This document shows, in pieces, positions 10,850 through 62,862 of a DNA stretch of 64,000 bases; position 1 is the stretch's first letter, and the number at the start of each line of letters is the position of its first letter. The stretch spans positions 2,293 through 66,292 of the IMG/VR virus record IMGVR_UViG_3300029438_000229. One strand, 5' to 3'. The stretch is from a virus. A program made the translations under genes and the position numbers. Under the pieces are notes generated by a model. It ran no database searches and was not told the DNA's origin. It saw only the letters and a list, made by a program, of their open reading frames with translations.

Positions 10850-10877
10850 ATTTTATGCGATTCGCAAGTATTGGCAA
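10850..10877 (-). promoter_or_regulatory. phage-type promoter
   Basis: TTGCCA-ATAC-TTGCGAAT-CGCA-TAAAAT. Confidence 0.55.
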
Positions 10878-10946
10878 CAGGAAAATATCGTTATAAAAAG
10901 AAAAAGCTGCCCAACCGAAGTTGGACAGCGAAAATGCTATTGAATT

Positions 10947-11330
10947 TTACTGTTTTTTGTTTTGTTCTGCTCTTCTGCGCTCGCGTTCCTCGTACTCCTT
11001 CTTCTGATACTTCAAGCGTTCGTTCAGCAGAAAGGAGTTTTCATCGCGGGTCATGGTGAGTTTGGCTCTGTACACGATATAAATGACGATAAGTGCCAAA
11101 ATGCCGTAGGTGAAGATGAGACTCAGAAGATTGCCAACAACCGTTACGATAATAGGCGAAATGAGATGGAGAATACCAATGACGAGCAGGAACATGCCAC
11201 CAAAGACGATGACTCTTGCAGCGGTCTGAACGGCAGGCGGGTAGCCATCAAGAAAAGTGGATATAGTATCGTTGATTTTCGTGAAAATATCATTTCTCTT
11301 TTTGCCATTGCTATTATTATTTTCAGCCAT
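10947..11330 (-). CDS. membrane protein
   Basis: 127 aa; AAAAAGGAGGG SD; two central TM helices; basic charged C-tail. Confidence 0.6.
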   Translation of the reverse strand: MAENNNSNGKKRNDIFTKINDTISTFLDGYPPAVQTAARVIVFGGMFLLVIGILHLISPIIVTVVGNLLSLIFTYGILALIVIYIVYRAKLTMTRDENSFLLNERLKYQKKEYEERERRRAEQNKKQ

Positions 11331-11436
11331 ACCGGACCCTCCTTTTTATGCCCATTATAGCACGTATTTGAACAAAATGCTATACCTCGCATTATATTGT
11401 GGGAGAACAGGAAGCACTTTGTTTGTCAGATGACAA

Positions 11437-11468
11437 CAAAAAAAGCCGCCACCCCAAAGGGCAACGGC
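11437..11468 (-). terminator. intrinsic terminator after GHKL gene
   Basis: GCCGTTGCCC..GGGTGGCGGC stem plus TTTTTTTG. Confidence 0.7.
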
Positions 11469-11485
11469 TAAGTGTGTTGGTGTGA

Positions 11486-13051
11486 TTAGCGAGGCAGGTT
11501 CTTGTCTACCACGATTTCGAGGTTGTAGTGAGGCAGTTTCGCAACATCACCCTTCGCAACCTTGAGAGCCGCCTTCATCTTGTCATCAGGCATGGACTGG
11601 ATAAGGCTGTTCAGTTCCTCACAGGTGTGGCTGAGCATCGGACCGCGACTGGTGGTGAACATCGTAGCGGAAACCGGCTGGCAACCCTGAGAGACCATAC
11701 CGTCCCAATGCGTGCGCAGTTCAGCAACAGACTTCATGTTAGCAGCAGTGCTCATGAAATCATAGATGTTGCAGTGGTTCTCGTCGATGTATTCAAGGAC
11801 ATCGATGCGAGTGCGGTTCGCATATACAGGGAACTGGAGCTCGACCTTGTTGCCGGTGTTGTTCATGATACGCTCAGCAAACTGCTTGGCGTACTCCACG
11901 AGGGGGCAGGTCTTGTCTTCCACGACAGGAACAGCATCCTTCACAGCATCGAAGATGGCACGCCAGCCCTCATCGCTCAAATCGATGTTGGACTTGTTTG
12001 CGAGGGTGTTCAGGAACCCACGCGGCAGGTCAGAGATATCGATGGCGATGGTGCCGGTGAACAGGTTGAAGGAAGGATGACGAGCACGGTCCCAGATGGT
12101 ATCCAACTGTGCGGTAGCGATAACGCGGTCGCCGAGCTGGATATCCACACCTTGGGTGCTCATATTTCCCTGATAATAGTGCTTCAGGGCGTAACCACCG
12201 GTCACTGCACGAGTCTGAGTAGCGGCTGCGTTGAGCAGACCGACCTCAACGGAAACAGGGATATCGTGACCATTGTAGTTCACGCTCAGATGATGCGTCC
12301 CGGTCACAGCCTTGTAGCGCTGGAAGATAGGCTTGACGAAAACATCGCAAGTCTTGCCGTTCGCCATCTGATAGTCGGGAATCAGGATACGGGCGGGAGC
12401 GGCACCGGAATCATCGGGCTTGAGGTAGTTGCGATACTTGACGCCGAAATGCTCCGCAATGGAACGGCGCAGCACATTGAGGCTGGAAACCTTGCTCGGA
12501 GCGCAGCTACCATTCTGGGTCAGCATAGTGCTTGCGGTGCTCTTGTCCATCTCCACATAGATGATGGTGGAGGGAGCGCCGAGAGGCTTGTAAGCATCAC
12601 GCATGACGATGTCGGCAAGAGGGATATCCTGCTGTTCAACAATCTTCATCTTGGTGTCGAAGGGGCCGTCAACGAGGTGGTAGGAATCTTCTTCCGGCTT
12701 CTTGGTGGCGATGAACCACGGATACTTGTTCCGGGTAGCGACCAGCAGGAAGTTGTTGAGACCTACGCCGTGGATGCACAGAGGACCCTCATCGGTGTGA
12801 CGAGAGCCAAACTGCAGGCTTTCGCTCACCTCGTTGATGTCCATACCGTTGCCCCAGTCGGCAGTAACCATGCCGATTAGGTCCTTCTCGGAGCCTGGTA
12901 CGAACGCAACCAGAGCGTTTACAGGGCCGGTGCTGTTCGACAGGATGTTGTCCATGGGCTCGCAAGCGGCGCTGTGCATCGGGAGAAACTGGTTGGAAAC
13001 GGCATTGAAGTAGTTCTTGGTAATACCAACATTGAGAATATGTGCCTTCAT
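11486..13051 (-). CDS. GHKL-type (HATPase_c_3 / MORC-like) ATPase-domain protein
   Basis: Trimmed to ATG 13051. N-box-like EPMDN, G1 box DWGNGMD, G2-like HGVGLNNF. The C-terminal RIDVLEY...IYDF is only weakly PD-(D/E)xK-like. Confidence 0.55.
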   Translation of the reverse strand: MKAHILNVGITKNYFNAVSNQFLPMHSAACEPMDNILSNSTGPVNALVAFVPGSEKDLIGMVTADWGNGMDINEVSESLQFGSRHTDEGPLCIHGVGLNNFLLVATRNKYPWFIATKKPEEDSYHLVDGPFDTKMKIVEQQDIPLADIVMRDAYKPLGAPSTIIYVEMDKSTASTMLTQNGSCAPSKVSSLNVLRRSIAEHFGVKYRNYLKPDDSGAAPARILIPDYQMANGKTCDVFVKPIFQRYKAVTGTHHLSVNYNGHDIPVSVEVGLLNAAATQTRAVTGGYALKHYYQGNMSTQGVDIQLGDRVIATAQLDTIWDRARHPSFNLFTGTIAIDISDLPRGFLNTLANKSNIDLSDEGWRAIFDAVKDAVPVVEDKTCPLVEYAKQFAERIMNNTGNKVELQFPVYANRTRIDVLEYIDENHCNIYDFMSTAANMKSVAELRTHWDGMVSQGCQPVSATMFTTSRGPMLSHTCEELNSLIQSMPDDKMKAALKVAKGDVAKLPHYNLEIVVDKNLPR

Positions 13052-13134
13052 AGTATACCCCGTATCGTGGGGCCAACGTGCTGCTCTTGAAATCATCTCC
13101 ACAGCAGGTAGAGCCCCAAGATAGGGGGTTATTG

Positions 13135-13263
13135 TTATTTGTTTGTGTGTTTGTCTGTTATTACAGGAAGCAGACAAGCGTAAAAGATTGCTATCGCAAG
13201 TATCGCAATTACAATCACGATAATTACGGGGACTGGGATTTGTTCGATGAGCGCAAGTATCAC
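13135..13263 (-). CDS. possible 42-aa hydrophobic peptide
   Basis: GTG-initiated ORF VILALIEQIPVPVIIVIVIAILAIAIFYACLL...; no SD seen. Confidence 0.25.
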   Translation of the reverse strand: MILALIEQIPVPVIIVIVIAILAIAIFYACLLPVITDKHTNK

Positions 13264-13640
13264 GCGTTTTAACAGCAGCTAGAGAAGACGACGTAGCATC
13301 TTATGATTGCTGAAAAAAGCGCTTACTTGCTAAAACATCTTCTTGAAATATGTCATGATAATTCTCCTTTTTTGATTGATATTCGTTTTATGCTAACGCA
13401 CTTTATCGTTGTACCCACGGCTGGAACATGTATAAAAGATGCTCTAACGCGGCGTTCGCGGCTGGGATATGTATAAAGGATGCTTTGCTGTATTTGCAGC
13501 AAAACAACGATTTTCGCATTAACGCAGCGTGTACGTCCCGCTTTTTAGGCAGGAAATCTATTATAATCACCGTATCGTGGTGTACTACGATGCAGGAATG
13601 TTCCCGCATGACCAAAAACAGATAGTCCGCAAAAACCTCC

Positions 13641-13792
13641 AAAAGAAAAAGGACAGACACCCATGACGAGTGTCTGTCCTTTTCAAGAAAAGAGGATTGT
13701 GAATATGGCTATTGTTGCACTACCTATACAGGTAATGATACTGGTATCTTTGGTACGATTATTATTCTATGCCGTTCGCAAGCGCTGTCAAC
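13641..13792 (-). promoter_or_regulatory. leader cassette copy 3 (diverged)
   Basis: TTGACA-17-TAGAAT with TTGCGAAC. ATCGTACCAAAGATACC, ATTCACAAT. Hairpin 13680-13650 plus a T-run. Confidence 0.6.
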
Positions 13793-13848
13793 ACTAATTT
13801 CTGATTTTTCCAAGCAAAAAGCCAACTGTGTGTCAGATAGTTTTTCTG

Positions 13849-14763
13849 TTATTCGTTGATGTTTTTCTGGTTGTGGTGAAGGGCACCACGGACAAATTGG
13901 TTCCAGCGAGCATGGTACAGGACGAACCCGTCCTCGAACTCCACCGTGATGTTGTTGACACCATGATAAGCAATACAGGTGGCTTTGCTGCCATTTTTCA
14001 TCGTCATCGTAGTGCCAACAGATTTCACATAATCGTGCTCATCCTTGCGAGCTGCACTGATAGTACGCATCCGCATTTTGCAGTCGGGACAGCAGGTAGC
14101 ACCGGATGCAATAGCCCGCGTCATGGCGCGAACGCTTGTCACGAACTCTTTTTTGCAATCCGGGCATACGAAGATAGCTCTTCTTTCCGAACGAGCGGAA
14201 ATTTCGCTGGGAGTGTAATCGTTCTTGTCGCTCCACATAGGAACAACCTTAGGACACTGGGTAGCCAAATCATTGATACCAGAAACAACCTTGCGACCTG
14301 CGCAAACAGGGCAACCTGTGCTGCCATTTTGTACGGTATGAACTACATTGCAGATAGAAGCTTCAAACTCCTGCTTACAATCTGGGCATACGAACCACGC
14401 TTTCTTGTTATTGCCTGCAGATGCTTCGCTGGGGGTGTATGTGTTCTTTGCACTCCACATAGCGAAAATCTTAGGACACTTGGTAGCCAAATCATTGATG
14501 CCAGGGACGACCTTGATACCTGCACAAACAGGGCAACCGGTATTACCACGCATCAAGGACCTTGCGATATGGAAAGCACGGGCTTCAAACTCCTGCTTAC
14601 AATCGGGGCATACGAACCACGCTTTCTTGTTGCTGCCTACAGATACTTCGCTAGGGGTGTATGTGTTCTTGGAACTCCACATAGCGGAAATCTTAGGACA
14701 CTTGGTAGCCAAATCGTTGACGCCGGAAATGACATTCTTGGAATTGATAGTGTTAGTATTCAT
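13849..14763 (-). CDS. treble-clef zinc-ribbon repeat protein (DUF4379-like)
   Basis: 304 aa. Three repeats of about 85 aa: INDLATKCPK..MWS.KN...CPDCK.EF...GCPVCAG. GGAGAAAGAGAG SD. Confidence 0.7.
   Translation of the reverse strand: MNTNTINSKNVISGVNDLATKCPKISAMWSSKNTYTPSEVSVGSNKKAWFVCPDCKQEFEARAFHIARSLMRGNTGCPVCAGIKVVPGINDLATKCPKIFAMWSAKNTYTPSEASAGNNKKAWFVCPDCKQEFEASICNVVHTVQNGSTGCPVCAGRKVVSGINDLATQCPKVVPMWSDKNDYTPSEISARSERRAIFVCPDCKKEFVTSVRAMTRAIASGATCCPDCKMRMRTISAARKDEHDYVKSVGTTMTMKNGSKATCIAYHGVNNITVEFEDGFVLYHARWNQFVRGALHHNQKNINE
14013..14727 (-). repeat. three in-frame tandem repeats (~255-270 nt) inside the zinc-ribbon gene
   Basis: The repeated peptide blocks are visible in the product and in the mirrored antisense ORFs of the track. 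Confidence 0.7.
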
Positions 14764-14826
14764 GGTAAACTCTCTTTCTCCTCGTATTTTCGAGGCTTGT
14801 AATAAATAAAAATGAGCGACTTGTAG

Positions 14827-14982
14827 TCACAATGTCTTAAACTTATGGCAGCAACGCATCATGGTGCGGATACGAACCAAGTCAATCTCGATTGCCAATG
14901 CGTTGATGGCTTCGAGCAGTGCATAGACAGCCATTGCGGGAATCGCTACAAGTAAAATAATGATGGATTTAATGGCTTTCAT
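14827..14982 (-). CDS. small membrane protein (51 aa)
   Basis: GGAGAAAGAGAG SD 7 nt before the ATG. MKAIKSIIILLVAIPAMAVYALL is a TM helix. Below the ORF-track size cutoff. Confidence 0.5.
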   Translation of the reverse strand: MKAIKSIIILLVAIPAMAVYALLEAINALAIEIDLVRIRTMMRCCHKFKTL

Positions 14983-15021
14983 TTCAGACTCTCTTTCTCC
15001 GCATTTGCGCGGTCTTGCAAC

Positions 15022-15140
15022 AAAAAAAGACAGGTCACCCGGTTGGTGCCTGTCTGAATTTTGTCAGGTTGTAAATGGTTGGTCGTGGTTTGGTATCTAT
15101 TGTACAATACTCATTCTATACTGTTCGCAAACGCCGTCAA
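15022..15140 (-). promoter_or_regulatory. leader cassette copy 4 (diverged)
   Basis: TTGACG-16-TAGAAT with TTGCGAAC. TTGTACAATAGATACC. Hairpin 15055-15028 plus TTTTTTT. Confidence 0.6.
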
Positions 15141-15197
15141 GACAACATTTCAAAAGAAAAAGCCGCCCCACCCTGAGAGGTGGAACGGCTGATGAGA

Positions 15198-15443: not shown

Positions 15444-15452
15444 AGTGCCACC

Positions 15453-17522
<2,070 letters not shown>

Positions 17523-17555
17523 TCAGTTCCTTTCAGTGCAGCCGCCATAGTATCT

Positions 17556-19646: not shown

Positions 19647-19780
19647 CAAAAAGGCGGGCCTCCCAAAATCGGGAAGTCCGCCTTAAAGCAAAATTGTGAA
19701 TTGTACGAACGCAGTTAGCGTCTTAGTAGATGGTATCTATCGTACAATTCTTATTTTATTCGGTTCGCATATCGCGTCAA
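19647..19780 (-). promoter_or_regulatory. leader cassette copy 5
   Basis: TTGACG-16-TAAAAT with ATGCGAAC. Full conserved leader. Hairpin 19682-19653 plus TTTTT. Confidence 0.7.
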
Positions 19781-21465: not shown

Positions 21466-21493
21466 AGTCTATGCGGTTCGCAAGAATGTGCAA
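21466..21493 (-). promoter_or_regulatory. phage-type promoter
   Basis: TTGCAC-ATTC-TTGCGAAC-CGCA-TAGACT. Confidence 0.55.
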
Positions 21494-22934: not shown

Positions 22935-23072
22935 AAAAGAGCGGACCTCTCAGAATCGAGAAGTCCGCCCTTTAAGCGAAATTGTGAATGTACGAAAGGC
23001 AGAAAGCCTTTTTGATTTGGAATGGTATCTATCGTACAATACCCATTCTACTTAGTTCGCATATTTTGGCAA
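22935..23072 (-). promoter_or_regulatory. leader cassette copy 6
   Basis: TTGCCA-16-TAGAAT with ATGCGAAC. Full conserved leader. Hairpin 22969-22941. The U-tract is short (CTCTTTTC). Confidence 0.65.
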
Positions 23073-25410: not shown

Positions 25411-25549
25411 CAAAAAAGGCGGGCTTCTCATCTGAGAAGTCCGCCCTTTAAGCGAAATTGTGAATTGTACGAAAGGCATAAAACCCTTTCGATATGGGAT
25501 GTTATCTATCGTACAATACCCATTCTATTCAGTTCGCACATTTTGGCAA
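25411..25549 (-). promoter_or_regulatory. leader cassette copy 7
   Basis: TTGCCA-16-TAGAAT with GTGCGAAC. Full conserved leader. Hairpin 25445-25418 plus TTTTTT. Confidence 0.7.
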
Positions 25550-26899: not shown

Positions 26900-27018
26900 T
26901 AAAAAAAGCGGGCCCATCCCCCGAAAGGGATAAGTCCGCTAAAAACGAAATTGTGAATTGTAAGATATCTGGTATCTATCGTACAATTCTATTCTACCGG
27001 TATCGCAAGAACATGCAA
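26900..27018 (-). promoter_or_regulatory. leader cassette copy 8 (short variant)
   Basis: TTGCAT-16-TAGAAT with TTGCGATA. TTGTACGATAGATACC...CTTACAATTCACAATTTCG. Hairpin 26940-26907 plus TTTTTTT. Confidence 0.65.
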
Positions 27019-32977: not shown

Positions 32978-33069
32978 AACAAAAAGACCCTGACAGCTAT
33001 CACAACAGCCATCAGGGTACATTTTTTAGTCTATAATTTAGATTGTATGCAGTTCGCACAAATGTGCAA
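32978..33069 (-). promoter_or_regulatory. promoter plus 5'-proximal hairpin/U-tract upstream of helicase gene
   Basis: TTGCAC(33069-33064)-16-TACAAT(33047-33042) with GTGCGAAC. Hairpin ACCCTGA..TCAGGGT 33018-32987, then CTTTTTGTTG, SD and ATG 32946. Confidence 0.6.
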
Positions 33070-34587: not shown

Positions 34588-35052
34588 TCACTTTTTGGGC
34601 AGTACCCAAATCTCAACGTTCACATTCCAAGCGTTGGCAGCTTCCTCGATAAGGTTCAGCACTGTCACCCAGTTTCCGCCTGCCAACCCGCAGCCGAGAC
34701 CGTAAGGAACGCGGAAAGTTGCGTCAGGGTGTTCTTTCATTGCTCTGAAAAGAGCCGTTCCCAGCGCCGCGTAGTTCGTCTGACGCTTATCTCTGCCGAA
34801 ACTCAATTGCCCGAACAGGTTAGCAACATACAGCTGCGGGGCGACCTGAACCACCTGAAAGTCACCGAGTTTCTTTGGACTGCAAACTTTCACATATTCG
34901 TCGAACACGACGGGCCACTTATCCCGAATCTGTCTGGCAAGACCCGCACCCATTGCGGCACGACAGTTCACCTGATGGCAGATGATAGTATTCTCGTTAC
35001 GAGTCGGCGGTGTTAAGATATTGCCCTCAATAAGGTTGACACTCATAGTCAT
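34588..35052 (-). CDS. macro-domain (ADP-ribose binding/hydrolase) protein
   Basis: 154 aa. EGNIL...ICHQVNC..AMGAGLA...YGLGCGLAGGNW signature. ATGA overlap with the upstream gene. Confidence 0.75.
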   Translation of the reverse strand: MTMSVNLIEGNILTPPTRNENTIICHQVNCRAAMGAGLARQIRDKWPVVFDEYVKVCSPKKLGDFQVVQVAPQLYVANLFGQLSFGRDKRQTNYAALGTALFRAMKEHPDATFRVPYGLGCGLAGGNWVTVLNLIEEAANAWNVNVEIWVLPKK

Positions 35053-35689: not shown

Positions 35690-36106
35690 TTACTGAGCCT
35701 GATATTTTGCGATAATTCGCCTTGCTTCCCTTTTCGGTACGCCGAACAGAGATACAGCAATTCGACTCAGTTTGTCTTTCTGTGTAGTGTCTGTCAGGAC
35801 CACAATGCGATGCATATCATGGATATCAGTAGCGACAACCACCTGAGCAAACCCGATTTTATCTTCAACGAACAGTCGCTTTAATTCTTTTGCAAACTCT
35901 TCCTTGCTCAGTTTAAGCATATAATCACTGTTGATGAACATGTCGAGTGGGAAAATATGCTCGTTATCGAACTCCTTCGGATGCGCATTTGCAAGGTCGA
36001 GTTCCGGGCGGAACATGGTTTTATCATGCACCAAGCCATAAATAATACCGGCTGCTTCGCCACTTTTGCAATCAATTACAAATTGCCCTCGCTGTGCATC
36101 AGCCAT
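35690..36106 (-). CDS. hypothetical protein
   Basis: Trimmed to ATG 36106 behind GGAGGGGACAACTT. Confidence 0.55.
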   Translation of the reverse strand: MADAQRGQFVIDCKSGEAAGIIYGLVHDKTMFRPELDLANAHPKEFDNEHIFPLDMFINSDYMLKLSKEEFAKELKRLFVEDKIGFAQVVVATDIHDMHRIVVLTDTTQKDKLSRIAVSLFGVPKREARRIIAKYQAQ

Positions 36107-36542
36107 AAGTTGTCCCCTCCGCAAGTTTTTCGTATATATTCTGTGTGCGTGTGTTGTTTTCGTCTTTGTGCATGAGCACGACATTTGCCATGCTTGTATA
36201 ATAGCTGGCATCACTGTTACCTTCTACGGTAAATTTTATGTTCTGCCCGTTATCGACTACCTCGTAGCTGATGAGTTTACCCGTGACCCACTGATTATTG
36301 TACCGGAAGTATATGTAGTTGTATTCCGTGGCGGCTGTCTCGGGCGTCATGTTTATATCCGAACCAGCCGTCTCAGTAGTCTCTGGGGTTGCCATATGAA
36401 TGATTTGCGCAGGCAAGTCCTTGATGCCGTCCATGGTCTTGTCTGCCACCTCACTGCATCCCTCGAACGCTACAGAAATGGTTGCGACAGCAAGAAGGAA
36501 GAGCGTTTTGTGGATGAACGAGAGAAATCGCTTCATAGACAT
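36099..36542 (-). CDS. lipoprotein
   Basis: 147 aa; signal plus lipobox AFEGC. ATG 36536 is an alternative start. Confidence 0.65.
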   Translation of the reverse strand: MSMKRFLSFIHKTLFLLAVATISVAFEGCSEVADKTMDGIKDLPAQIIHMATPETTETAGSDINMTPETAATEYNYIYFRYNNQWVTGKLISYEVVDNGQNIKFTVEGNSDASYYTSMANVVLMHKDENNTRTQNIYEKLAEGTTYG

Positions 36543-36595: not shown

Positions 36596-36624
36596 ATTAT
36601 ACCATGAAGTTGTATTGAATACAA
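36596..36624 (-). promoter_or_regulatory. sigma-A-type promoter for lipoprotein gene 36542
   Basis: TTGTAT-17-TATAAT preceded by TGG. Confidence 0.5.
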
Positions 36625-36683: not shown

Positions 36684-36834
36684 AAAAAGAAAAGACCCGC
36701 CTGTTAGCCGCAGGCAGGTCTTTCTTCGCAGTGAGCGTTTAAGGTCGGCTCAGGACCCTATTCGTCTCTACCGAAGCAACGTCATCAACGCTGTTCAGTA
36801 TGTTTTATTGTATGCCAGTCGCACGGGTCGTCAA
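36684..36834 (-). promoter_or_regulatory. promoter followed by terminator-like hairpin, upstream of a second promoter
   Basis: TTGACG(36834-36829)-16-TACAAT(36812-36807) with GTGCGACT. Hairpin GACCTGCCTG..CAGGCGGGTC 36720-36694 plus TTTTCTTTTTG. Confidence 0.55.
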
Positions 36835-36907: not shown

Positions 36908-37228
36908 TTAATCTTCGAGGTCGAAGCTATACCCTTTCTTGTCCATTGTCACGAAGCCATTGCGGGTCTGACATATGCTGTCACCGAAATAAGCTTCGAG
37001 GGTCATGCCGGTGTCCTCGCCATCCAGCCACTGCGGGCGCATATAGGCCGCAAGGTCATACAATACGCCGACTGCGTAGGCAATCAGTTCATCGCTGTTC
37101 ATCGCTTCGTTGACCGCATCGTCATCGGCCTCGACAGGGATACCGATGGAGGCGGTAATGGTGTCCGGTGTGTTGTCGTCTAAGTGACGAGTAGCGGTGA
37201 GCTCAAATTTTAGGATGTTAGTTTCCAT
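36908..37228 (-). CDS. hypothetical acidic protein
   Basis: Track ORF trimmed to ATG 37228 behind AAAGGAGAACATATT. The promoter at 37272-37299 lies inside the longer form. Confidence 0.55.
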   Translation of the reverse strand: METNILKFELTATRHLDDNTPDTITASIGIPVEADDDAVNEAMNSDELIAYAVGVLYDLAAYMRPQWLDGEDTGMTLEAYFGDSICQTRNGFVTMDKKGYSFDLED

Positions 37229-37271: not shown

Positions 37272-37299
37272 ATTCTAGGCCGTTCGCATAGCTGGTCAA
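37272..37299 (-). promoter_or_regulatory. phage-type promoter
   Basis: TTGACC-AGCT-ATGCGAAC-GGCC-TAGAAT. Confidence 0.55.
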
Positions 37300-37945: not shown

Positions 37946-37974
37946 ATTATACCATTTGTTTTTGCAATTTTCAA
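37946..37974 (-). promoter_or_regulatory. sigma-A-type promoter for PH-domain gene
   Basis: TTGAAA-17-TATAAT; no TGCGAA block. Confidence 0.5.
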
Positions 37975-38789: not shown

Positions 38790-38886
38790 AAAAACCTCCC
38801 ACCGCAGTCAGCATGCTACTGATTACGATGGGAGGCTCAAACCTTTTGTGATAGTCTTATTATACCACGCTTCGTGAATTACTCAA
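38790..38886 (-). promoter_or_regulatory. promoter plus hairpin/U-tract upstream of HEPN-like gene
   Basis: TTGAGT-16-TATAAT (38886-38859). Stem CCTCCCA..TGGGAGG 38835-38795, then TTTTTGG before ATG 38762. Confidence 0.5.
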
Positions 38887-47604: not shown

Positions 47605-47694
47605 AGAAAAATCAAGCCGCAGAGAACAAATCCCTGCGGCTTATACTAAATCACTTTATATTCTCCATTGTATCCAATTCGCACGAATGTGCAA
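47605..47694 (-). promoter_or_regulatory. promoter plus 5'-proximal hairpin/U-tract upstream of micro-ORF 47590
   Basis: TTGCAC(47694-47689)-16-TACAAT(47672-47667) with GTGCGAAT. Hairpin AAGCCGCAG..CTGCGGCTT 47642-47614 plus GATTTTTC. Confidence 0.6.
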
Positions 47695-47910: not shown

Positions 47911-47939
47911 TTGCAATTCCACCAGCGTTCCCGTATAAT
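47911..47939 (+). promoter_or_regulatory. promoter of the single plus-strand gene
   Basis: TTGCAA-17-TATAAT, 56 nt before ATG 47995. Confidence 0.6.
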
Positions 47940-47943
47940 AGTT

Positions 47944-47976
47944 ACAGAATGATACACAAAGCTACAAAATGATACA
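47944..47976 (+). repeat. two 13-bp direct repeats between -10 and SD (operator-like)
   Basis: ACAGAATGATACA (47944-47956) and ACAAAATGATACA (47964-47976). Confidence 0.6.
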
Positions 47977-47994
47977 TGCGAAAGGAGTCGCTAT

Positions 47995-49872
47995 ATGTTC
48001 TCTGTCAAGCTGAACGCCCCTGTCCTGCTTCGCAAGCAGCTGCCGGTGATTGCCAAGGCATTGCATGTTGATGAGAAGGTCCTTGACGATTTTCTATCCG
48101 TTTCGGCTTTCTATGGCGTTAAAGATGGCAAAGGAACAATTGTCCCTATAAAGAAAACGGATACCGTTGTCCATATCGATTATAAGGCATATGATAGCTA
48201 CTATTTTGTTGTCGAAGCTATCCTGCAATACGCTAAAGACATCGATGCCTCTGTTACTCTACCTGTCATCACTGAAATCGAACTCGGTACAGATGTTTTC
48301 AAAAAGATGGCTCCTGACCAGCTTTCAGATATTGTATATCTGGCAAAACTGCTCCGCGACAGCAACGGCCGCATTCCAAGGCTAAAAGAGTTGAATGCGC
48401 CGTACATTCTTGTTGCCAGCGAGTGCGCACACCTGTGCAAAAAGGTGGAGTGCCTTGAAGACAACGCACACATGCCGTCCCCCTCCAAAGACTTAGACGG
48501 ACATGTATATGCTTCCTTGCATGATATCGGTTATTCGATTCTTGACGGCTGGCTGAACAAGGATGACAGTTCCGAGTATAATGATAAGGAGAATGCGGGA
48601 TATGACCCCGATAAGCTGGCGGCGCTCGTCAAGAAAGCCATCGGTACGCGGACACAGGAGCAGTTTTCCCAGACATCGCATCTCGGCCGCGTATATGTGA
48701 ACCGTCTTGCGAACGGCAAAACACAGTCTCAGCCTACCGAGGTTACCTTGAAGAAAATCGCCAAGGCAACGGATGCCGTGACAGAAAACGAGCTTCGTCA
48801 GGCATGCGGTTATGAGCCGCTTCCGGGTGAGGATGTCGTGGAGTCTAAGAAACGCATCGAAACCGTGGACGACTACACATGGATTCACGAGAACGTCAAT
48901 TATTTCCTTGAATTCTTGAAAGCGCAGATTCCGATGGCGTTGCCGCTGTATAATCTCGTCATCCTCGAGAATCAGTACATGAGCATCCACAAGGACGGCT
49001 ATGACCTTTTCGGTATTCATCGCTGCTCGGCTCCCGTCGAGTATTCTGAGGACGGTATTGTTGCGAATGTCATTTACCCCGTTACTTTCGATTTGACAAA
49101 TTTTCAGCGTGGCATCCGCCTTTCTGTGGCCGTCGGGCTCTTGGGTCATTACAGCAAAAACAATGAGCTGTACATTACCGACTACATCACCGATGTCGAT
49201 GCACTGTACAAGTATGCACCCTTCTTGCGCAAGGCTATCGACAAAGTAGGAGAGAATTTCAGGGAAAGCGGTGTAGATATTCAAGACTTCCCTGTTTTTT
49301 ACTATACTATAAACCTGAAGAAGGCATTTACAGCAAAGCATGTCTTTGCGAAAATGGAGAAGTTCCTGACCAGTCTTGTGAAAGTTCGTGTGGATGCACT
49401 CGGATTCTATGCTGACAACCTGAGCGACGAGACCTTCATCAAGTTCCTTAAAAACCATAAGAAGGTCATGACGAACGAGTACGCCGACAACGAAATCAAG
49501 GATTTCTACGAGAATGTTGTTGTACGGCATGGCGACATCGAGGACTTCTTTGCGGAGAACTCGGACTATAACAGTAAAGCCGCTATCGTCGCCTATGTCA
49601 TCCAGAATGAGGCTTCGGACGATACCCCCCGCCGTCTGGTAGACGGATTCACCTTTGACGATGACGACAAGGAAGATAGACCCTGTGTTGCCGCCTCGAA
49701 GCGGAAAATCGAAGCATGGCAGAAAGAGCATCCCGGTAATGGCTTTAACCTGAAAGTGTTCTCTGACACTCTGAAAAAGTATGCCGATGAGTTGGGCTTA
49801 GAGTTCGGTGACGTATACTACTATCTGGTTGTCGAGGATGACAAGGCTGACGAGATGGGCGTTCGCGTCTAA
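47995..49872 (+). CDS. large HTH-containing protein (only plus-strand gene)
   Basis: 625 aa; GAAAGGAG SD. Central XRE-like segment IGTRTQEQFSQTSHLGRVYVNRLANGK. Has its own TTGCAA-17-TATAAT promoter. Confidence 0.7.
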   Translation: MFSVKLNAPVLLRKQLPVIAKALHVDEKVLDDFLSVSAFYGVKDGKGTIVPIKKTDTVVHIDYKAYDSYYFVVEAILQYAKDIDASVTLPVITEIELGTDVFKKMAPDQLSDIVYLAKLLRDSNGRIPRLKELNAPYILVASECAHLCKKVECLEDNAHMPSPSKDLDGHVYASLHDIGYSILDGWLNKDDSSEYNDKENAGYDPDKLAALVKKAIGTRTQEQFSQTSHLGRVYVNRLANGKTQSQPTEVTLKKIAKATDAVTENELRQACGYEPLPGEDVVESKKRIETVDDYTWIHENVNYFLEFLKAQIPMALPLYNLVILENQYMSIHKDGYDLFGIHRCSAPVEYSEDGIVANVIYPVTFDLTNFQRGIRLSVAVGLLGHYSKNNELYITDYITDVDALYKYAPFLRKAIDKVGENFRESGVDIQDFPVFYYTINLKKAFTAKHVFAKMEKFLTSLVKVRVDALGFYADNLSDETFIKFLKNHKKVMTNEYADNEIKDFYENVVVRHGDIEDFFAENSDYNSKAAIVAYVIQNEASDDTPRRLVDGFTFDDDDKEDRPCVAASKRKIEAWQKEHPGNGFNLKVFSDTLKKYADELGLEFGDVYYYLVVEDDKADEMGVRV

Positions 49873-50157: not shown

Positions 50158-50186
50158 AGTATACCTCGAGCCGCACGGATGTGCAA
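50158..50186 (-). promoter_or_regulatory. phage-type promoter overlapping the 3' end of the Myb-repeat gene
   Basis: TTGCAC-17-TATACT with GTGCGGCT in the spacer. Confidence 0.5.
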
Positions 50187-50190
50187 GAGG

Positions 50191-50943
50191 TCATTTGCGA
50201 TTCTTTTGGGCAGGTTTCTGGCATCCTAAGCGCATCGCCTTGCAGTAAATAGCAGTGCCTGTTCGGTTCAGGGTTTTCTGCAGGGATTCGCTCGCACCTT
50301 CCACGGGAAAGCGTTCCCGGAGCACCTTTTCCTCATCAGCCGTCCAGGTCGAGCGTTTCTGGCACACAAGGCCCATGATGCTCGTATGGTTCAAGACAGA
50401 AGCGCGGCTGCGGTTGAGGTCTTTCAAAAGAGCCTCGCTTGCACCTTCCCAAGGATATCTCTCAATGAGAATATCCTCCTCTTCCTCGGTCCACCGGTGT
50501 TTATTTTCGCATCGGAGCCCCAATACGTTAGCCTTGATACCGATAAGATAGGCACTGCGCTGAAACAGTTGCACCAGTTCCTGGCTTGCTCCCTCTTTCG
50601 GGTATCGTTCAGCCAGAATCTTCAACTCCTCCTCGGTCCAATAATGCCGAGTGCCTTTTATGCCGAGCAGACGAGCCTTTCTGTTAATGGTCGCGGCGCT
50701 TCTGCAGAGCAGTTTCTGGAGGTCTTTGCTGGCACCCTCGTTCGGATACCGCTCTCTCAGAATCTCGATGTCCTCGTCAGTGAATCTCTTTCGTTTCACA
50801 TTGCGAAGCCCAACTTGCTGGGCCTTGAAACGAATCGCTTGCTTTGTGCGACCTAAAGTCTTTACGAGCGAATCACTTGCGCCCTCCTTCGGATACCGCT
50901 GATTTAAAATCGTTAATTCTTCTGCTGTCCATGGTTTTTCCAT
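50191..50943 (-). CDS. five-repeat SANT/Myb-like DNA-binding protein
   Basis: 250 aa made of five tandem repeats of about 47 aa: WTxEE..IL.ERYP.EGAS...L.RS...I..KA..LGL. Confidence 0.7.
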   Translation of the reverse strand: MEKPWTAEELTILNQRYPKEGASDSLVKTLGRTKQAIRFKAQQVGLRNVKRKRFTDEDIEILRERYPNEGASKDLQKLLCRSAATINRKARLLGIKGTRHYWTEEELKILAERYPKEGASQELVQLFQRSAYLIGIKANVLGLRCENKHRWTEEEEDILIERYPWEGASEALLKDLNRSRASVLNHTSIMGLVCQKRSTWTADEEKVLRERFPVEGASESLQKTLNRTGTAIYCKAMRLGCQKPAQKNRK

Positions 50944-50972: not shown

Positions 50973-51104
50973 CAAAAAAAGAGCAGACGCACCACTGGGG
51001 TGAATCTGCTCTTCTTCGTCAGAATGTGAATTGTACGGAAGTCGTTTATTATGCTGCTATCTATCGTACAATTATAAGTGTATGCTATTCGCACAGCCTG
51101 GCAA
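50973..51104 (-). promoter_or_regulatory. leader cassette copy 9
   Basis: TTGCCA-16-TACACT with GTGCGAAT. AATTGTACGATAGATAGC...CCGTACAATTCACA. Hairpin 51012-50980 plus TTTTTTT. Confidence 0.65.
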
Positions 51105-52436: not shown

Positions 52437-52464
52437 ATAGTACGCAATTCGCACGAATGGGCAA
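52437..52464 (-). promoter_or_regulatory. phage-type promoter
   Basis: TTGCCC-ATTC-GTGCGAAT-TGCG-TACTAT. Confidence 0.55.
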
Positions 52465-55022: not shown

Positions 55023-55050
55023 ATTGTATGCAATTCGCACGGCTGTGCAA
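55023..55050 (-). promoter_or_regulatory. phage-type promoter far upstream of the PLD/SF3 helicase gene
   Basis: TTGCAC-AGCC-GTGCGAAT-TGCA-TACAAT. The leader is about 330 nt. Confidence 0.55.
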
Positions 55051-55408: not shown

Positions 55409-55419
55409 AGTGTACCTCC

Positions 55420-58536: not shown

Positions 58537-58538
58537 GG

Positions 58539-59339: not shown

Positions 59340-59348
59340 CTCTGCCCC

Positions 59349-60230
59349 TCACCCTTTCTTCCGCAGACAATCCTCACATACGGTTCGGAAACAGTCTGCG
59401 GATGGTCTCTCGTGTTTCGGAAGCGGCTTTACCGCCTGTATATGAAGTTTCGCGCCTTGTTCCGGAGTCCTGCCGCAGACAACACACCGAAACCTGTCAC
59501 GCTGCAAGACTTCGTACTTGATTTGCGAGGATGCCTGCCTCCGCTCGTTTTCCCGCTGCTGACGTTCCCGTTCGTGTGCCTTAGCGAGTCTTACGAATTC
59601 CTTAGCTTCTGCCATCGAATAGGTCTTAGACTCCTCCATCGGTCGGCCCTTATGCGTGACATACTGCTTCACCGCAATAAAAGTCGTCTCTATCACGGGA
59701 GTGCCGAACACCGCTGCATTGACCAGCTTCTTCTCATAGTGCTTATACAGCCAGAAAGGGATTCTTCTTCCGCAATCATCGTCCTTCTCGGTCCAGTTGG
59801 GGATGCTTTTGAGCTCTTCCTTATATGCCGCAAACTGAATCACATTCGACTGCGCCCATCCGAAAACCTCTTCAAACTGGGGAATCTTTTTCCGAACAGT
59901 GCTCATGAACAGCTTATCGAGGGAAGCCCCCTTGAACTCTTCAAGGGATTCGAGCGGGTATTCGAGACGAATTTCTTCGTCCACATCATAGAACTCATAT
60001 CCCTGATTGATTTCCTCAACGCCCGCCAGAATCTCGCTGGTATTGCGCACATCTTTTTTGGCGGCAGAGACGACGAGAAGCCATATACCGGCCAAAACAG
60101 CCAATGCGACAACAATTACCACGGCAATCGTCACCGGCGACATTACTGCTATCTGGTCCTCTACCCAAAACGAAAACTCTTCCGGCATATCAATCAGCCA
60201 GTCTATGAAATGCATCGGTTTACCGTACAT
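59349..60230 (-). CDS. membrane protein with degenerate HNH-like zinc module
   Basis: 293 aa; GGAGGAA SD. TM helix VMSPVTIAVVIVVALAVLAGIWLLVV. C-terminal RCVVCG...LHIQAV...CEDC. Confidence 0.6.
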   Translation of the reverse strand: MYGKPMHFIDWLIDMPEEFSFWVEDQIAVMSPVTIAVVIVVALAVLAGIWLLVVSAAKKDVRNTSEILAGVEEINQGYEFYDVDEEIRLEYPLESLEEFKGASLDKLFMSTVRKKIPQFEEVFGWAQSNVIQFAAYKEELKSIPNWTEKDDDCGRRIPFWLYKHYEKKLVNAAVFGTPVIETTFIAVKQYVTHKGRPMEESKTYSMAEAKEFVRLAKAHERERQQRENERRQASSQIKYEVLQRDRFRCVVCGRTPEQGAKLHIQAVKPLPKHERPSADCFRTVCEDCLRKKG

Positions 60231-60323
60231 CTATGATTCCTCCATAATTCCAGACGGCGTCTGGAAAATCTCTTTCTTACAATTTCTGTGCGGACAATAC
60301 CGCTATGACTGCCCTTGATTTTC

Positions 60324-60351
60324 ATTATCTTCAATTCGCACAAATCGGCAA
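60324..60351 (-). promoter_or_regulatory. phage-type promoter of the membrane-HNH / XpaC-like / vWA operon
   Basis: TTGCCG-ATTT-GTGCGAAT-TGAA-GATAAT. Confidence 0.55.
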
Positions 60352-60362
60352 CTTTTTCGCGC

Positions 60363-60400
60363 AAAAACAAAAAAAGCAGCCATCCGTGATGGATGACTGC
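60363..60400 (-). terminator. intrinsic terminator
   Basis: GCAGTCATCC..GGATGGCTGC stem plus TTTTTTTGTTTTTG. Confidence 0.7.
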
Positions 60401-60576
60401 AAAAAATATCGGTGAATTTCGGAAAAATGTTGCAAACGGCCTTGCAAACCCCCAGAAAAATGTCGCAGCGCTTAGAAATGTGCCTGGTCAATGTTGTTTT
60501 TCGTTAGAGTACGGAGATGACAGAAGAACGCTCGTGTCGAGCACATAATATTTTTCTGAGATTCGCACCTATCGTT

Positions 60577-60771
60577 TCAGGTGTTTTCTCGGATGGCATC
60601 GAGGATGTCCTTCTTTGTGCCGCGCACCGAACAGCCATTATCCTCAAAGGCCGCAAACAGCGTTTGCACGAATTTCTCGTTCTCATCTTTCGAGATATCT
60701 GGCATCCAGAAAGAGTAGTCATCATCGCCGTATTTGAAGACGATGCCTTCAATTTTCGGGTTCTTGCTCAT
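60577..60771 (-). CDS. hypothetical protein
   Basis: Trimmed to ATG 60771 behind AAAAAAGGGGGACACT. Confidence 0.55.
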   Translation of the reverse strand: MSKNPKIEGIVFKYGDDDYSFWMPDISKDENEKFVQTLFAAFEDNGCSVRGTKKDILDAIRENT

Positions 60772-60800
60772 AGTGTCCCCCTTTTTTCCGTTCTGAGCAT

Positions 60801-61217
60801 TCATTTAGCACATAGGCTCGCAGCCAGCACCCCAACAGCGATAATACCGGTCACGAACAGAAGCATACAGGCGAACATTACGCCGAAAGAAAGCGTGAGG
60901 TATGAGATTTGTTCGACCATGCTCAGCAGATGAATTTTGTCCGTTAATTTGTCAATTTCATCTACATCCGCCAACTGCTTTTGACGCTCTCCCTCCATGA
61001 CCAATGCCTCATAAGCACCGCCAAAACTGAATTCATCGTCCGACAGCGGCTTTCTCCTGGTCTGCATCATGCGGTTTATCAGTTTTTCTTCGAGTTCTGC
61101 TTCCTTTGCGCATTTTTCCGCGTCTTTCTCATCCAGCATCTTGCCCGACACCTTGTAGCAAATGAACGATGCAATGCAAAGCAGCGCTGCAATGACAAGC
61201 GAAAAAGTGAAAATCAT
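60801..61217 (-). CDS. membrane protein
   Basis: 138 aa with TM helices at both ends. ATGA overlap with the upstream gene. Confidence 0.6.
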   Translation of the reverse strand: MIFTFSLVIAALLCIASFICYKVSGKMLDEKDAEKCAKEAELEEKLINRMMQTRRKPLSDDEFSFGGAYEALVMEGERQKQLADVDEIDKLTDKIHLLSMVEQISYLTLSFGVMFACMLLFVTGIIAVGVLAASLCAK

Positions 61218-61522
61218 GATTCTACCTCAAGAGGAAGCTGCTCAAACGGCAGCGTCAAGTAGTCGTACAGGGATTCGGCGGTAGGCATGTCGTAGCGCAT
61301 CCGGCGACCATCTTCGAGGTCGAACCAGATGCATTTGCGGACATCCTCATACAGCCACCAGTCAATGGTGTCTGCCTTGTCGTCCAGTTCTTCTTTGAGG
61401 ATGCGGAGCAATGCAGCAAGATACAGATTGTCAGCATAGAACACTACTGCCGAGTCGCAGATTTTGCCGAGCGCATGGTCAAATTCCGAAATTTTCCGGT
61501 CTTGCTCGTCAACTACCCCCAC
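61214..61522 (-). CDS. hypothetical protein, 5' end possibly displaced by the tnpB element
   Basis: There is no ATG. GTG 61522 is the first plausible start. The track extension to 61645 runs through the structured RNA region downstream of tnpB. Confidence 0.4.
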   Translation of the reverse strand: MGVVDEQDRKISEFDHALGKICDSAVVFYADNLYLAALLRILKEELDDKADTIDWWLYEDVRKCIWFDLEDGRRMRYDMPTAESLYDYLTLPFEQLPLEVES

Positions 61523-61524
61523 CT

Positions 61525-61750
61525 GAAGGAGGGGGCTTGTAGTCCCGCAGGACTCCAATTTTTTTCCCACTCGACGGACTGTTAGGCACGGTTGCTGTCC
61601 GTGCGACCGAGTACAATGGGCGTTCACCGCTGTTGCAGGCGGCATAGCTGTGGTGAGAATTGGATTATGCGGGATACAGTCCCAATAACCCTACATTGCG
61701 AATGTTTATGGCAGCGTTGTGGTCACGGTTATGTGTCGTGCCGCAGGCGC
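61525..61750 (-). ncRNA. putative TnpB guide-RNA (omega/reRNA) scaffold
   Basis: The expected position is the 3' end of tnpB plus about 140 nt downstream. The region has dense nested hairpins: GCACGG..CCGTGC, CGGAC..GTCCG, GTCC-CGCA-GGAC, CCCCC..GGGGG. Confidence 0.35.
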
Positions 61751-62810
61751 TGCATGTCCAAACGCGGTCAGCAAGCGTGAGGTCGTCTTTTATGAAACCA
61801 CAAACGCTGCAGGTTTTGCTGGACGGATACCACTTATCGATTTTGGCAAAGGTCTTTCCTTGCGATGTGAGTTTATACTCAAGCATCGTGCGGAACATAC
61901 CGAAGCCATTATCGTTTGTGGATTTACCAAGCTTCAGGGAACCAGCCAAACCGCGCAGGTTGATGTCTTCCACAAATACAGCATCATACTGCTTGGCTAT
62001 CGCAGCACTTACCGTATGGCAGAAGTTCTTGCGCTGATTGGCTATATGTTCATGCAAAAGCTGAATTTTATGCAGTTGTTCGTTATAATTTTTAGAGCCC
62101 GCTTCCATACGAGACAGCTTGCGCTGCTCTTTTGCAAGTTTCTCTTCACTCTGACGATAGAATTGCGGATAGTTGGCCACTTTGCCGTTGCTGTCAACAT
62201 AAAAGTCATGGGAAGAATAATCTAAGCCAAGAGATTTCTCTTTGGTGGGAACAATAGGCTGGATATCCTTCTCGAATTCATACAGCAGTGAAACGAAATA
62301 CTTGCCGCTGCGGGTACAGCTGACGGTAGCGCCTTTTAGTACCCAGTCGGCATCCGGTTGACGGTGTACTTTAACTTTTACATTGCCTACCTTTGGCAGA
62401 TGAACAAGATTGCCGACAACATAAACGGTATTCTTGATTTTGCCGTCTTTGCTTTGCGTTTTTTTGTTGTTTGTTGTGTACGACATTTCGTTCCTGTGTT
62501 TGCTTTTCAATCTTGGGACACCAACGGCTTTTGGACTCTCCAGATGCCGCTTGTTTGCATCTTTCAAATCAAGCTGTGTGTTTGCAAGAGCAAGGCTATC
62601 CACCTCTTTCAGAAACGGAAACTCCTTTTTGTATTTGGCAGGCGTAGGAACAAAAAAAGTTCCCGCTTCGTCCAGAAACTGCTGTGCATCTATAAGCATA
62701 TGGTTCCAGATAAAACGTACGCAGCCAAAGGTTTTGGCAAACAGAACCTGCTGTTCTGATGTTGGATACGCACGATATTTTATTGCTCTATTTAGTTTTT
62801 GCACAGGCAC
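61665..62810 (-). CDS. tnpB: TnpB (IS200/IS605-family RuvC-like RNA-guided nuclease)
   Basis: RAIKYRAYPTSEQ...FGCVRFIWN N-terminus. C-terminal CSVCG...CSACG zinc finger plus NRDHNAAINI. GTG 62810 (8 nt after GAAGGTGG) is preferred over the track GTG 62822. Confidence 0.85.
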   Translation of the reverse strand: MPVQKLNRAIKYRAYPTSEQQVLFAKTFGCVRFIWNHMLIDAQQFLDEAGTFFVPTPAKYKKEFPFLKEVDSLALANTQLDLKDANKRHLESPKAVGVPRLKSKHRNEMSYTTNNKKTQSKDGKIKNTVYVVGNLVHLPKVGNVKVKVHRQPDADWVLKGATVSCTRSGKYFVSLLYEFEKDIQPIVPTKEKSLGLDYSSHDFYVDSNGKVANYPQFYRQSEEKLAKEQRKLSRMEAGSKNYNEQLHKIQLLHEHIANQRKNFCHTVSAAIAKQYDAVFVEDINLRGLAGSLKLGKSTNDNGFGMFRTMLEYKLTSQGKTFAKIDKWYPSSKTCSVCGFIKDDLTLADRVWTCSACGTTHNRDHNAAINIRNVGLLGLYPA

Positions 62811-62834
62811 TGCTGTCACCACCTTCTATTATTT

Positions 62835-62862
62835 AGTGTACTCAGTTCGCACATTATATCTA
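62835..62862 (-). promoter_or_regulatory. phage-type promoter directly upstream of tnpB
   Basis: TAGATA-TAAT-GTGCGAAC-TGAG-TACACT. The 14 nt AATGTGCGAACTGA are identical to cassette copy 7. Confidence 0.45.

Follow-up and report, generated by a model that had tools for sequence, protein, structure and literature searches.

The analyzed window comprises 64,000 nt of the IMG/VR virus record IMGVR_UViG_3300029438_000229, the full length of which is 66,292 bp. It carries a series of promoters that contain a short conserved block, TGCGA, at a fixed position in the spacer between the -35 and -10 elements. In the window, the pattern TTG-N8-TGCGAA-N5-TANNNT matched exactly at 14 minus-strand positions and nowhere on the plus strand; 100 dinucleotide-preserving shuffles yielded no match. 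TGCGAA alone was mildly in excess (72 observed versus 54 expected) because of the promoter copies. A search of the 66,292-bp record anchored only on TGCGA and a -10-like hexamer yielded 23 matches, one of which was a duplicate from the terminal repeat of the contig ends. The 22 unique sites were all on the minus strand, all had a 16-nt spacer, and a TTG was present exactly 8 nt 5' of the block in 21 of them. According to a simple gene call, each of the 22 sites is intergenic and lies ahead of a minus-strand gene. Ten sites of the window belong to a repeated promoter-leader cassette and are denoted "cassette type" below.

2743..2770, minus strand: block promoter, cassette type, TTGCAT-cttc-GTGCGAGT-cgga-TATAAT; deviates from NTGCGAAY
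9270..9297, minus strand: block promoter, cassette type, TTGCGC-gaat-GTGCGAAC-cgca-TACAAT
10850..10877, minus strand: block promoter, TTGCCA-atac-TTGCGAAT-cgca-TAAAAT, with a perfect 11-bp palindrome, TGCGAATCGCA
13764..13791, minus strand: block promoter, cassette type, pattern match
15113..15140, minus strand: block promoter, cassette type, pattern match
19753..19780, minus strand: block promoter, cassette type, pattern match
21466..21493, minus strand: block promoter, TTGCAC-attc-TTGCGAAC-cgca-TAGACT
23045..23072, minus strand: block promoter, cassette type, pattern match
25522..25549, minus strand: block promoter, cassette type, pattern match
26991..27018, minus strand: block promoter, cassette type, variant TTGCGATA; deviates from NTGCGAAY
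33042..33069, minus strand: block promoter of the gene for a 912-amino-acid UvrD-like helicase, pattern match
36807..36834, minus strand: block promoter, variant GTGCGACT; deviates from NTGCGAAY
37272..37299, minus strand: block promoter, TTGACC-agct-ATGCGAAC-ggcc-TAGAAT
47667..47694, minus strand: block promoter, divergent from a plus-strand helix-turn-helix (HTH) gene, pattern match
50158..50186, minus strand: degenerate variant, TTGCAC-atcc-GTGCGGCT-cgagg-TATACT, with TGCGG and a 17-nt spacer
51077..51104, minus strand: block promoter, cassette type, ahead of the gene for a Myb/SANT-like five-repeat protein, pattern match
52437..52464, minus strand: block promoter, pattern match
55023..55050, minus strand: block promoter of the gene for a 721-amino-acid PLD-family nuclease, pattern match
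60324..60351, minus strand: block promoter with GATAAT as -10 element, relaxed match
62835..62862, minus strand: block and -10 element with a poor -35 element (TAGATA), directly upstream of a TnpB gene (OrfB_IS605/Cas12f-like; 61665-62822, minus strand)
63974..64000, minus strand: block promoter, cassette type, cut by the contig end, GTGCGAGT; deviates from NTGCGAAY; identical to the copy at the other end (138-bp terminal repeat)

These sites had been described in an initial annotation as sharing an invariant 8-mer, NTGCGAAY. The five nucleotides TGCGA are indeed invariant, but the full 8-mer fits only 16 of the 21 listed sites. Ten of the eleven positions that had been given outside the cassettes were exact, while the one at 50158 is one base off, degenerate, and has a 17-nt spacer. 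A leader-like sequence, TTGTATGATAGATAC, is found upstream of the NAD-ligase gene (~17520-17545, minus strand) with no recognizable block promoter before it, and this may be a decayed cassette.

The register of the block was quantified in a pooled set consisting of the window and every fetched relative, anchored only on TTG..TAnnAT. The relatives included four large contigs (G001-G004) and a 3.2-Mb host metagenome-assembled genome (MAG; G005) with a 224-kb plasmid contig (G005:C1). TGCGA was present in 380 of 733 unique sites with a 16-nt spacer, and in 378 of these 380 it was located at spacer position 5. Background spacers of 15, 17, and 18 nt (220, 259, and 219 sites, respectively) were essentially devoid of TGCGA, and shifted registers of the block had zero matches among the pooled unique 28-mers. 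These 28-mers comprised 222 exact cores and 23 with a single mismatch; the T and the C of the core were invariant, and the sixth block base is A in about three quarters of the sites. The -10 sub-variant GATAAT of position 60324 occurs four more times on G005:C1 (151890, 153452, 183118, and 188127). A block fixed within the spacer, as the initial annotation had claimed, is thus confirmed, and its occurrence is far beyond chance.

Per-column statistics were calculated for a diverse subset of 101 block promoters. The extended consensus is S-TTGCmn-nnnY-KTGCGAAYYGCA-TAnAAT-nRAAAtTGTA. The -35 element is TTG (TTGACA-like), with C (70/101) or A (23/101) as the fourth base, the -10 element is TAnAAT (TATAAT-like), and the spacer is within the range of 17 +/- 1 nt, all of which agrees with promoters of the sigma-A/sigma-70 type. 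Also, a conserved tGTA sits at the position expected for the sigma-A transcription start. The conserved block is therefore situated inside otherwise ordinary sigma-A-type promoters.

The flanking spacer columns contain only 0.06-0.35 bits, and the 3' half of the spacer is informative as well (Y, Y, G 82%, C 62%, A 62%). TGCGA-A-TCGCA forms an imperfect 11-bp palindrome that ends at the -10 element, with an invariant left arm and a right arm of 0.3-1.0 bit per position. At each of the five positions of the right arm, the mirror base ranks first or second in frequency (G 82, C 62, A 62, T 46, and C 36 of 101). TTG, TGC, and TA are spaced at 11-bp intervals in the alignment, which would place the block on the sigma-contact side of the helix, so that a bound protein would be expected to compete with the polymerase.

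The initial annotation had also considered that an alternative or extracytoplasmic function (ECF) sigma factor reads GCGAAC as a -35 element. GCGAAC resembles the ECF motif GGAAC, and TGTA follows GCGAAC 16-17 nt downstream in most sites. However, AAC is not conserved (its final position is C in 43 promoters and T in 46 of the 101), and TTG and TAnAAT are essentially invariant although they would be dispensable for an ECF sigma factor. The downstream motif is TGTA rather than CGT and is found at the expected sigma-A start. In addition, searches for the Sigma70 domains r2, r4, and r4_2 (PF04542, PF04545, PF08281) gave nothing over the cut-off in the record and the four large relatives, while the control genomes were detected. 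This explanation is largely refuted, and we regard it as extremely improbable.

Orthologous promoters were compared at pairs of genes with downstream proteins less than 90% identical. The upstream DNA of these pairs was 33% identical and the flanking spacer 47-56%. Exact block promoters were found within 500 nt of diverged orthologues in 17 of 25, 16 of 25, and 7 of 9 cases (64-78%, counted without conditioning on the partner), versus 11% of random windows. For the UvrD-like helicase, the orthologues of which are 65-72% identical, the block is kept while the flanking spacer bases differ. Because the flanks are randomized and the block is kept at diverged orthologues, neither passive inheritance nor gene conversion offers an explanation, and the sequence comparisons show purifying selection on the block.

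These data also bear on the view that the block is functionless and was inherited from one ancestral cassette that spread by duplication or gene conversion. Such a history would agree with the ten promoters that belong to the repeated cassette, and a fixed register would be expected from descent. Yet neighboring spacer positions have been randomized and the block has not, gene conversion would have homogenized the flanks too, and the block persists where the upstream DNA has diverged to the extent given above. Single-mismatch variants are few compared with exact unique cores, and the T and C never vary. A functionless relic is therefore hardly credible. A single-strand (Frpo-type) hairpin promoter was also rejected, as there is no inverted copy, the sites all lie on one strand, and the upstream regions are unrelated.

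What kind of element carries these promoters was deduced from its gene content and from its relatives. Megablast of the record gave no phage match. The window has genes for orphan methyltransferases (N6_N4, two of the C5 type, and an EcoRI-like one), two nucleases (GmrSD/HNH and PLD), a UvrD-like helicase, and a NAD ligase. It also codes for TnpB, a sortase, proteins with VWA and macro domains, and several small proteins that are very acidic. The promoter-plus-leader signature was found in more than 115 IMG/VR stretches, on contigs that reach 389 kb. Only two GTDB genomes contained it, both of them gut MAGs named "Clostridiales bacterium". The relatives have sizes of 171-389 kb and GC contents of 47-48.5%, and the MAG and contig titles give the human gut as their origin. 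The contig G005:C1 contains genes for VirB4, VirD4, an M23 hydrolase, and Rep_3, with the following coordinates for the two components of the type IV secretion system (T4SS):

G005:C1 79967-82675: VirB4 (TraG P-loop/AAA_10), domain match
G005:C1 85816-87978: VirD4 (T4SS-DNA_transf), domain match

This VirB4 is 84% identical in G001 and G003, and Rep_3 (PF01051) was detected with E values of about 1e-28 in G001, G003, and G005:C1; the same search of the window, which is a fragment, had no match. Common to the large relatives are a topoisomerase, a zeta toxin, and a Bro-N/KilA-C protein. They also share a prim-pol-like protein of 673-799 amino acids (L178-L183; G005:C1 185830-188229), the N-terminus of which resembles a primase-polymerase (hhhDhD and GRGAA.W, recognized by eye) and the C-terminus of which has two HTH motifs. 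This protein is 41% conserved between sub-lineages and occurs alongside Rep_3.

These features agree with the "Hodor" conjugative megaplasmids of a 2026 preprint, which are from the human gut, have sizes of 211-389 kb, and encode Rep_3, ParAB, VirB4/VirD4, sortases, and TnpB (PMC12934698). Their GC content is about 45-47%, and their sequences are mostly filed in viral databases (PMC12934698). The present element and the Hodor family have Rep_3, VirB4/VirD4, sortase, TnpB, gut origin, and size in common (PMC12934698). We conclude that the record is a fragment of a gut Clostridiales conjugative megaplasmid that matches Hodor in gene content, size, GC content, and origin. A phage identity was rejected, because there was no phage match by megablast and the element family instead has a T4SS and Rep_3. 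With VirB4, VirD4, M23 hydrolase, and Rep_3 present in the family, the phage frame of the initial annotation, which had referred to an infection time course and to Q-binding elements, has to be abandoned.

The classification of the record as a complete circular virus with direct terminal repeats was rejected as well. The 138-bp terminal repeat (63863-64000 of the window and 138 bases at the opposite contig end) is one of the ten cassettes, and the genes for Rep_3, the prim-pol-like protein, and the T4SS are absent. From this combination it follows that the record is probably not a complete circle but a megaplasmid fragment whose assembly closed on the repeat.

The small acidic proteins (isoelectric points of 4.1-4.6, some with zinc ribbons) are encoded at 36908-37228 and 36099-36449 of the window (minus strand) and at 34810-35016 and 12284-12517 of G004. 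They are highly conserved across lineages and may be DNA-mimic or anti-restriction proteins.

The four large relatives contain 42-67 block sites each, 223 of 226 of which lie on one strand, and a reversed-pattern control had no match. In the inspected records, the block sites are distributed along most of the sequence. The T4SS operon of G005:C1 has one block promoter just upstream and none inside. In the host MAG, 37 of 39 matches are on two plasmid contigs, all on one strand, the remaining two are weak, and the reversed-pattern control was again zero; the host assignment rests on MAG binning. In 400 other genomes of the same order, 0-6 matches per strand were found, like in the control. The TGCGAA relatives examined make up one VirB4 group (84-87% identity). 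The block promoter is the standard promoter of this plasmid family, and the two censuses, of the host MAG and of the order, rule out a host trait. A host regulon acting via the extended site TGCGAAYYGCA was also rejected: 16 of the 20 copies in the host MAG are on the plasmid contigs, and the chromosome is not enriched.

A separate observation concerns the chromosomes of the order of G005. A promoter-like sequence, TTGCCAAGTGGTGCGACGCAGATATAAT, is nearly unchanged in at least seven species-level genomes and has GTGCGA in the same register (examples are G391:C30:15611-15638, G074:C27:9871-9898, and G403:C13:15001-15028).

More distant lineages were accessed by a VirB4 homology search, which yielded tiers of 99, 87, 84, 75, 65, 61, 49, 45, and 42% identity. 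Even close relatives have no block promoters in the T4SS region, which makes the VirB4 neighborhoods uninformative for the second Hodor group, and the 49% and 65% tiers showed too few promoters for a comparison. Two distant lineages carry other conserved blocks at the same spacer position, namely CTAACAAAAGTAA and the palindrome GCTAATTAGC. In the 45% tier (L247 and L243, one human-gut contig), AACAAAAGTA occurs six times in 30 kb versus 0.08 expected, on the coding strand only, each time within a promoter spacer and in one register, TTGnnn-n-(T/A)(C/A)TAACAAAAGTAA-n-TAnnAT, with a 16-nt spacer. One house promoter of this lineage has TAGACA as its -35 element, comparable to TAGATA at 62835 of the window. 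In the 42% tier (L244), the perfect palindrome GCTAATTAGC(G) occurs four times in 22.5 kb (at 1276, 1310, 16287, and 21261), although even its 8-bp core is expected only 0.5 times, and every copy is at a promoter. Of these copies, two occupy the 3' half of a spacer of 16-17 nt, adjoining the -10 element, and the others lie just downstream of a -10 element, so that GCTAATTAGC is likely to be a repressor operator of this lineage. Taken together, the sequences argue for a family-wide architecture, in which the 16-nt spacer of a sigma-A-type promoter holds a conserved block in its 3' part, with a block sequence specific for the lineage.

It could be envisaged that the host RNA polymerase holoenzyme itself, via sigma region 3 or the zipper or zinc-binding domain of beta-prime, reads the block as an intrinsic strength element. 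A very conserved reader would suit a block that is invariant across sub-lineages with proteins of 30-90% identity, the block shares its helical face with the -35 and -10 contacts, and no plasmid regulator was found. However, a host element is difficult to reconcile with two weak off-plasmid matches in 3.2 Mb and background levels in 400 genomes of the order, and the related lineages use quite different blocks of 10-13 nt, which could hardly all be read by one polymerase. To our knowledge, there is no precedent for six spacer bases (-23 to -18) being read base-specifically. Reading by the host polymerase thus appears improbable. Instead, three different blocks point to plasmid-encoded readers that have diverged between lineages.

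The element carries at least four orphan methyltransferases, and the block might therefore be a target of methylation or another DNA modification, the state of which would switch the promoters once the element has been transferred. No CpG other than that of the block occurs in the promoter core, and newly transferred DNA would be unmodified. On the other hand, the site is asymmetric and matches no recognition sequence that can be inferred for these enzymes, TGCGAA is neither depleted nor unusual outside promoters, and blocks of other lineages, e.g. CTAACAAAAGTAA, contain no CpG. A modification switch is accordingly very improbable.

A DNA-binding factor acting between the -35 and -10 elements had been proposed in the initial annotation and stays the best reading, in view of the selection on the block, the randomized flanks, and the retention at orthologous promoters. 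We tentatively favor, with a confidence somewhat short of even, that the block is a lineage-specific operator of a global regulator encoded by the plasmid, and that this regulator is most likely a repressor. We infer that a protein binds the block, that it is encoded by the plasmid, and that it represses. TGCGA(A) and the weaker YYGCA would represent the predicted binding site, built into the spacer of a sigma-A-type promoter and read by a regulator conserved within the lineage. Bound to the polymerase-facing side of the spacer, this regulator would control almost every transcription unit of the megaplasmid simultaneously. The genes would fire upon entry into a regulator-free recipient and then be shut down, and the specificity would differ between lineages, much like phage immunity. 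A repressor is favored because of the near-consensus hexamers, the location of the block on the polymerase side, the partial dyad, the operator layout of the 42% lineage, and plasmid precedents; with an invariant TTG and TAnAAT, no activator should be needed for these promoters to fire. RK2 and R388 are established examples of repression across a whole plasmid that is lifted on transfer. Global operators embedded in promoters are also established for conjugative plasmids, e.g. Reg576 of p576 (PMC6294495, PMC8708921).

Several results weigh against this repressor model. At 5 nt, the invariant core is short, and the right half-site is weak. Operator copies outside the spacer, as in the 42% lineage, were not found in the TGCGAA lineage. 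The rigid register could also follow from descent together with a fixed spacer length. Finally, among the candidates described in the following, no cognate repressor encoded by the element was identified. A search for ribbon-helix-helix (RHH) repressors with RHH_1 (PF01402) had no match, and 60 small or unassigned proteins of the window contained no DNA-binding Pfam domain. The Bro-N/KilA-C backbone protein of 252 amino acids is the only candidate that is both conserved (89-98%) and of a DNA-binding type, and nothing links it to the block. A Myb/SANT-like protein is encoded directly behind a block promoter (50191-50943, minus strand), but this five-repeat protein is absent from G001-G004 and hence it was rejected as a universal reader. 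The same was true for a 73-amino-acid XRE protein, which lies in a nearly identical module in G001-G004 but is absent from G005:C1; it had no detectable similarity to the small HTH protein of the 45% lineage.

The Myb/SANT-like protein has 250 amino acids in five tandem repeats of ~49 amino acids (WT.EE..IL.ERYP.EGAS..L...L.RS...I..KA..LG) with a match to phrog_323, "transcriptional regulator, D5-like". In relatives with a 99% identical helicase, its identity is only 87-91%, which characterizes it as a fast-evolving protein.

A further regulator candidate is the only large plus-strand gene of the window:

47911..49872, plus strand: HTH unit with the gene at 47995-49872, encoding 625 amino acids (HTH_3 at residues 220-267)

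The 625-amino-acid HTH gene has its own block-less promoter, TTGCAA..TATAAT with a 17-nt spacer, and two direct repeats, TACAnAATGATACA, precede its ribosome-binding site (RBS). In its orthologues, which are 41% identical, the region from promoter to RBS contains direct repeats too, with a different pair in each. The repeats are TACAnAATGATACA, AACTTTAGACA, and AAGTTACAAA, and they are located at 47940-47994 (plus strand) of the window, at 174237-174290 of G002, and at about 147350-147427 of G004. They look like operators that co-vary with the protein, and since they differ before each orthologue, the protein probably reads these repeats. A TGCGAA before the RBS in the window is not conserved in the orthologues, and in G002 the HTH gene itself is behind a plus-strand block promoter. 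Because of its own lineage-specific repeats, the HTH protein was rejected as a universal block reader, which also counts against the repressor model; it is probably an autoregulated regulator with its own operator. Searches for other types of readers were likewise negative. A T7-type RNA polymerase had no match, with an uninformative control. Among known Firmicute boxes, the Spo0A 0A box TGNCGAA differs from the block by one inserted base, the second half of the LexA site (half-site CGAAC) is missing, and the motifs of Rex, CRP/FNR, and the -10 elements of sigma-E/K do not fit at invariant positions.

The promoters that lack the block were also analyzed:

11354..11362, minus strand: class II promoter candidate, no block, TGnTATAAT, extended -10 element TGGTATAAT
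36596..36604, minus strand: class II promoter, no block, extended -10 element TGGTATAAT
37946..37954, minus strand: class II promoter, no block, extended -10 element TGGTATAAT
38859..38867, minus strand: class II promoter, no block, extended -10 element TGGTATAAT

The TGn extension is present in all four of them and in none of the 101 diverse block promoters. The block-less promoters with an extended -10 element are a real second class, as had been surmised for 36596, 37946, and 38859; the term "temporal class" used for them is, however, inapplicable to a plasmid.

The mutual exclusion of block and TGn suggests that the block supplies what TG supplies elsewhere, and it leads to the alternative that a plasmid-encoded activator or accessory factor of the polymerase reads the block together with host sigma-A. 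The promoters would then be "private" and, owing to their 16-nt spacer, a poorly matching second half of the -35 element, and a missing TG extension, weak without the factor. The register, fixed to both hexamers in nearly every pooled site, would be well explained, as would the match of the -35 element to TTGc.. only and the spacer that is one base below the optimum. Different codes at the same position in other lineages and the use of this promoter type for nearly all units, among them the unit that directly precedes the T4SS operon on G005:C1, are also in line with an activator. Opposed to this, no sigma-like, MotA-like, or other candidate factor was found, the block on the polymerase-facing side would make simultaneous binding more difficult, and the palindrome of the 42% lineage also occurs downstream of the -10 element, which fits repression. 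The absence of TGn may, furthermore, be a by-product of the preference for G20/C21. An activator is thus unlikely, though by no means negligible. A related and rather doubtful proposal is orthogonal transcription, in which the factor of each lineage would read a code of 6-13 nt in the fixed 16-nt spacer together with host sigma-A. If this were true, the 40-70 promoters of a plasmid would be private, insulated from the host, and would not cross-react between co-resident lineages.

These megaplasmids are widespread in human gut metagenomes and are loaded with anti-restriction and surface genes. Hodor-related reads were reported for 9,349 metagenomic samples, and the preprint covers gene content and prophage carriage, while the word "promoter" is absent from its text (PMC12934698). 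The literature searched contained nothing relevant on a TGCGAA spacer element. New here are the lineage-specific spacer codes and the tie of the block promoters to Hodor plasmids. One fixed box offers a handle on master regulation, because the regulon can be defined by sequence and one trans-acting factor is predicted. Different boxes at the same position suggest immunity-like or orthogonal control among co-resident plasmids, and the lineage boxes could represent a natural set of orthogonal promoter-factor pairs for Firmicutes. In addition, the marker TTG-N8-TGCGA-N6-TANNNT, in many copies on one strand, flags plasmid fragments that have been filed as "complete viruses".

Several known systems resemble the one proposed here. 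In RK2/RP4, KorA (with TrbA/KorB) has a short operator at many of the plasmid's own promoters, as is the case here, and a KorA-type regulon represses plasmid-wide until repression is relieved on entry into a new host. The operator of KorA overlaps the -10 region. It is a clean palindrome of 12 bp, occurs at about seven promoters, and has a known repressor, whereas the present element has an asymmetric box of 5-6 nt whose mirror half is weak and which occurs at 20-67 promoters, in a fixed register within a 16-nt spacer. The C1 repressor of P1 is one element-encoded protein with asymmetric operators throughout the replicon, many of which overlap promoters. The P1 operators, however, are 17 bp long and vary in position, whereas the box has one exact place in the spacer. 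The elements differ as well, P1 being an enterobacterial phage-plasmid and the present one a conjugative megaplasmid of Clostridiales. At Pant of phage P22, the Arc operator lies between -35 and -10 and the bound protein competes with the polymerase, as is proposed here, but this is a single 21-bp operator at one promoter pair and not a replicon-wide code. The middle promoters of T4 are also a class defined by an extra box at a fixed distance from a sigma-70 -10 element and by an element-encoded factor, MotA. The MotA box replaces the -35 element (it is centered at -30) and requires AsiA, whereas here the TTG of the -35 element is kept and the box is at about -23 to -18.

The Firmicute plasmids p576 (Reg576/EGeRS2) and pLS20 (EGeRS1) have establishment and anti-restriction operons that are each preceded by a shared regulatory sequence (PMC6294495, PMC8708921). 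In p576, this sequence consists of a strong sigma-A promoter and operators for a plasmid RHH repressor, which results in transient expression after transfer (PMC6294495, PMC8708921). The Reg576 heptamers, TTATCCCnnTTATCCC, were not seen in the promoter alignments of the present element, which places it outside the EGeRS group as defined by more than 60% sequence similarity and by Reg operators on either side of the promoter, and in contrast to p576, no RHH gene was detected by the RHH_1 search. The Reg576 operators form 4-5 sites upstream of the -35 element or downstream of the transcription start, while the block studied here has an unrelated sequence and is found in the spacer of dozens of promoters. 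By this comparison, pLS20 and p576 are analogous in function only.

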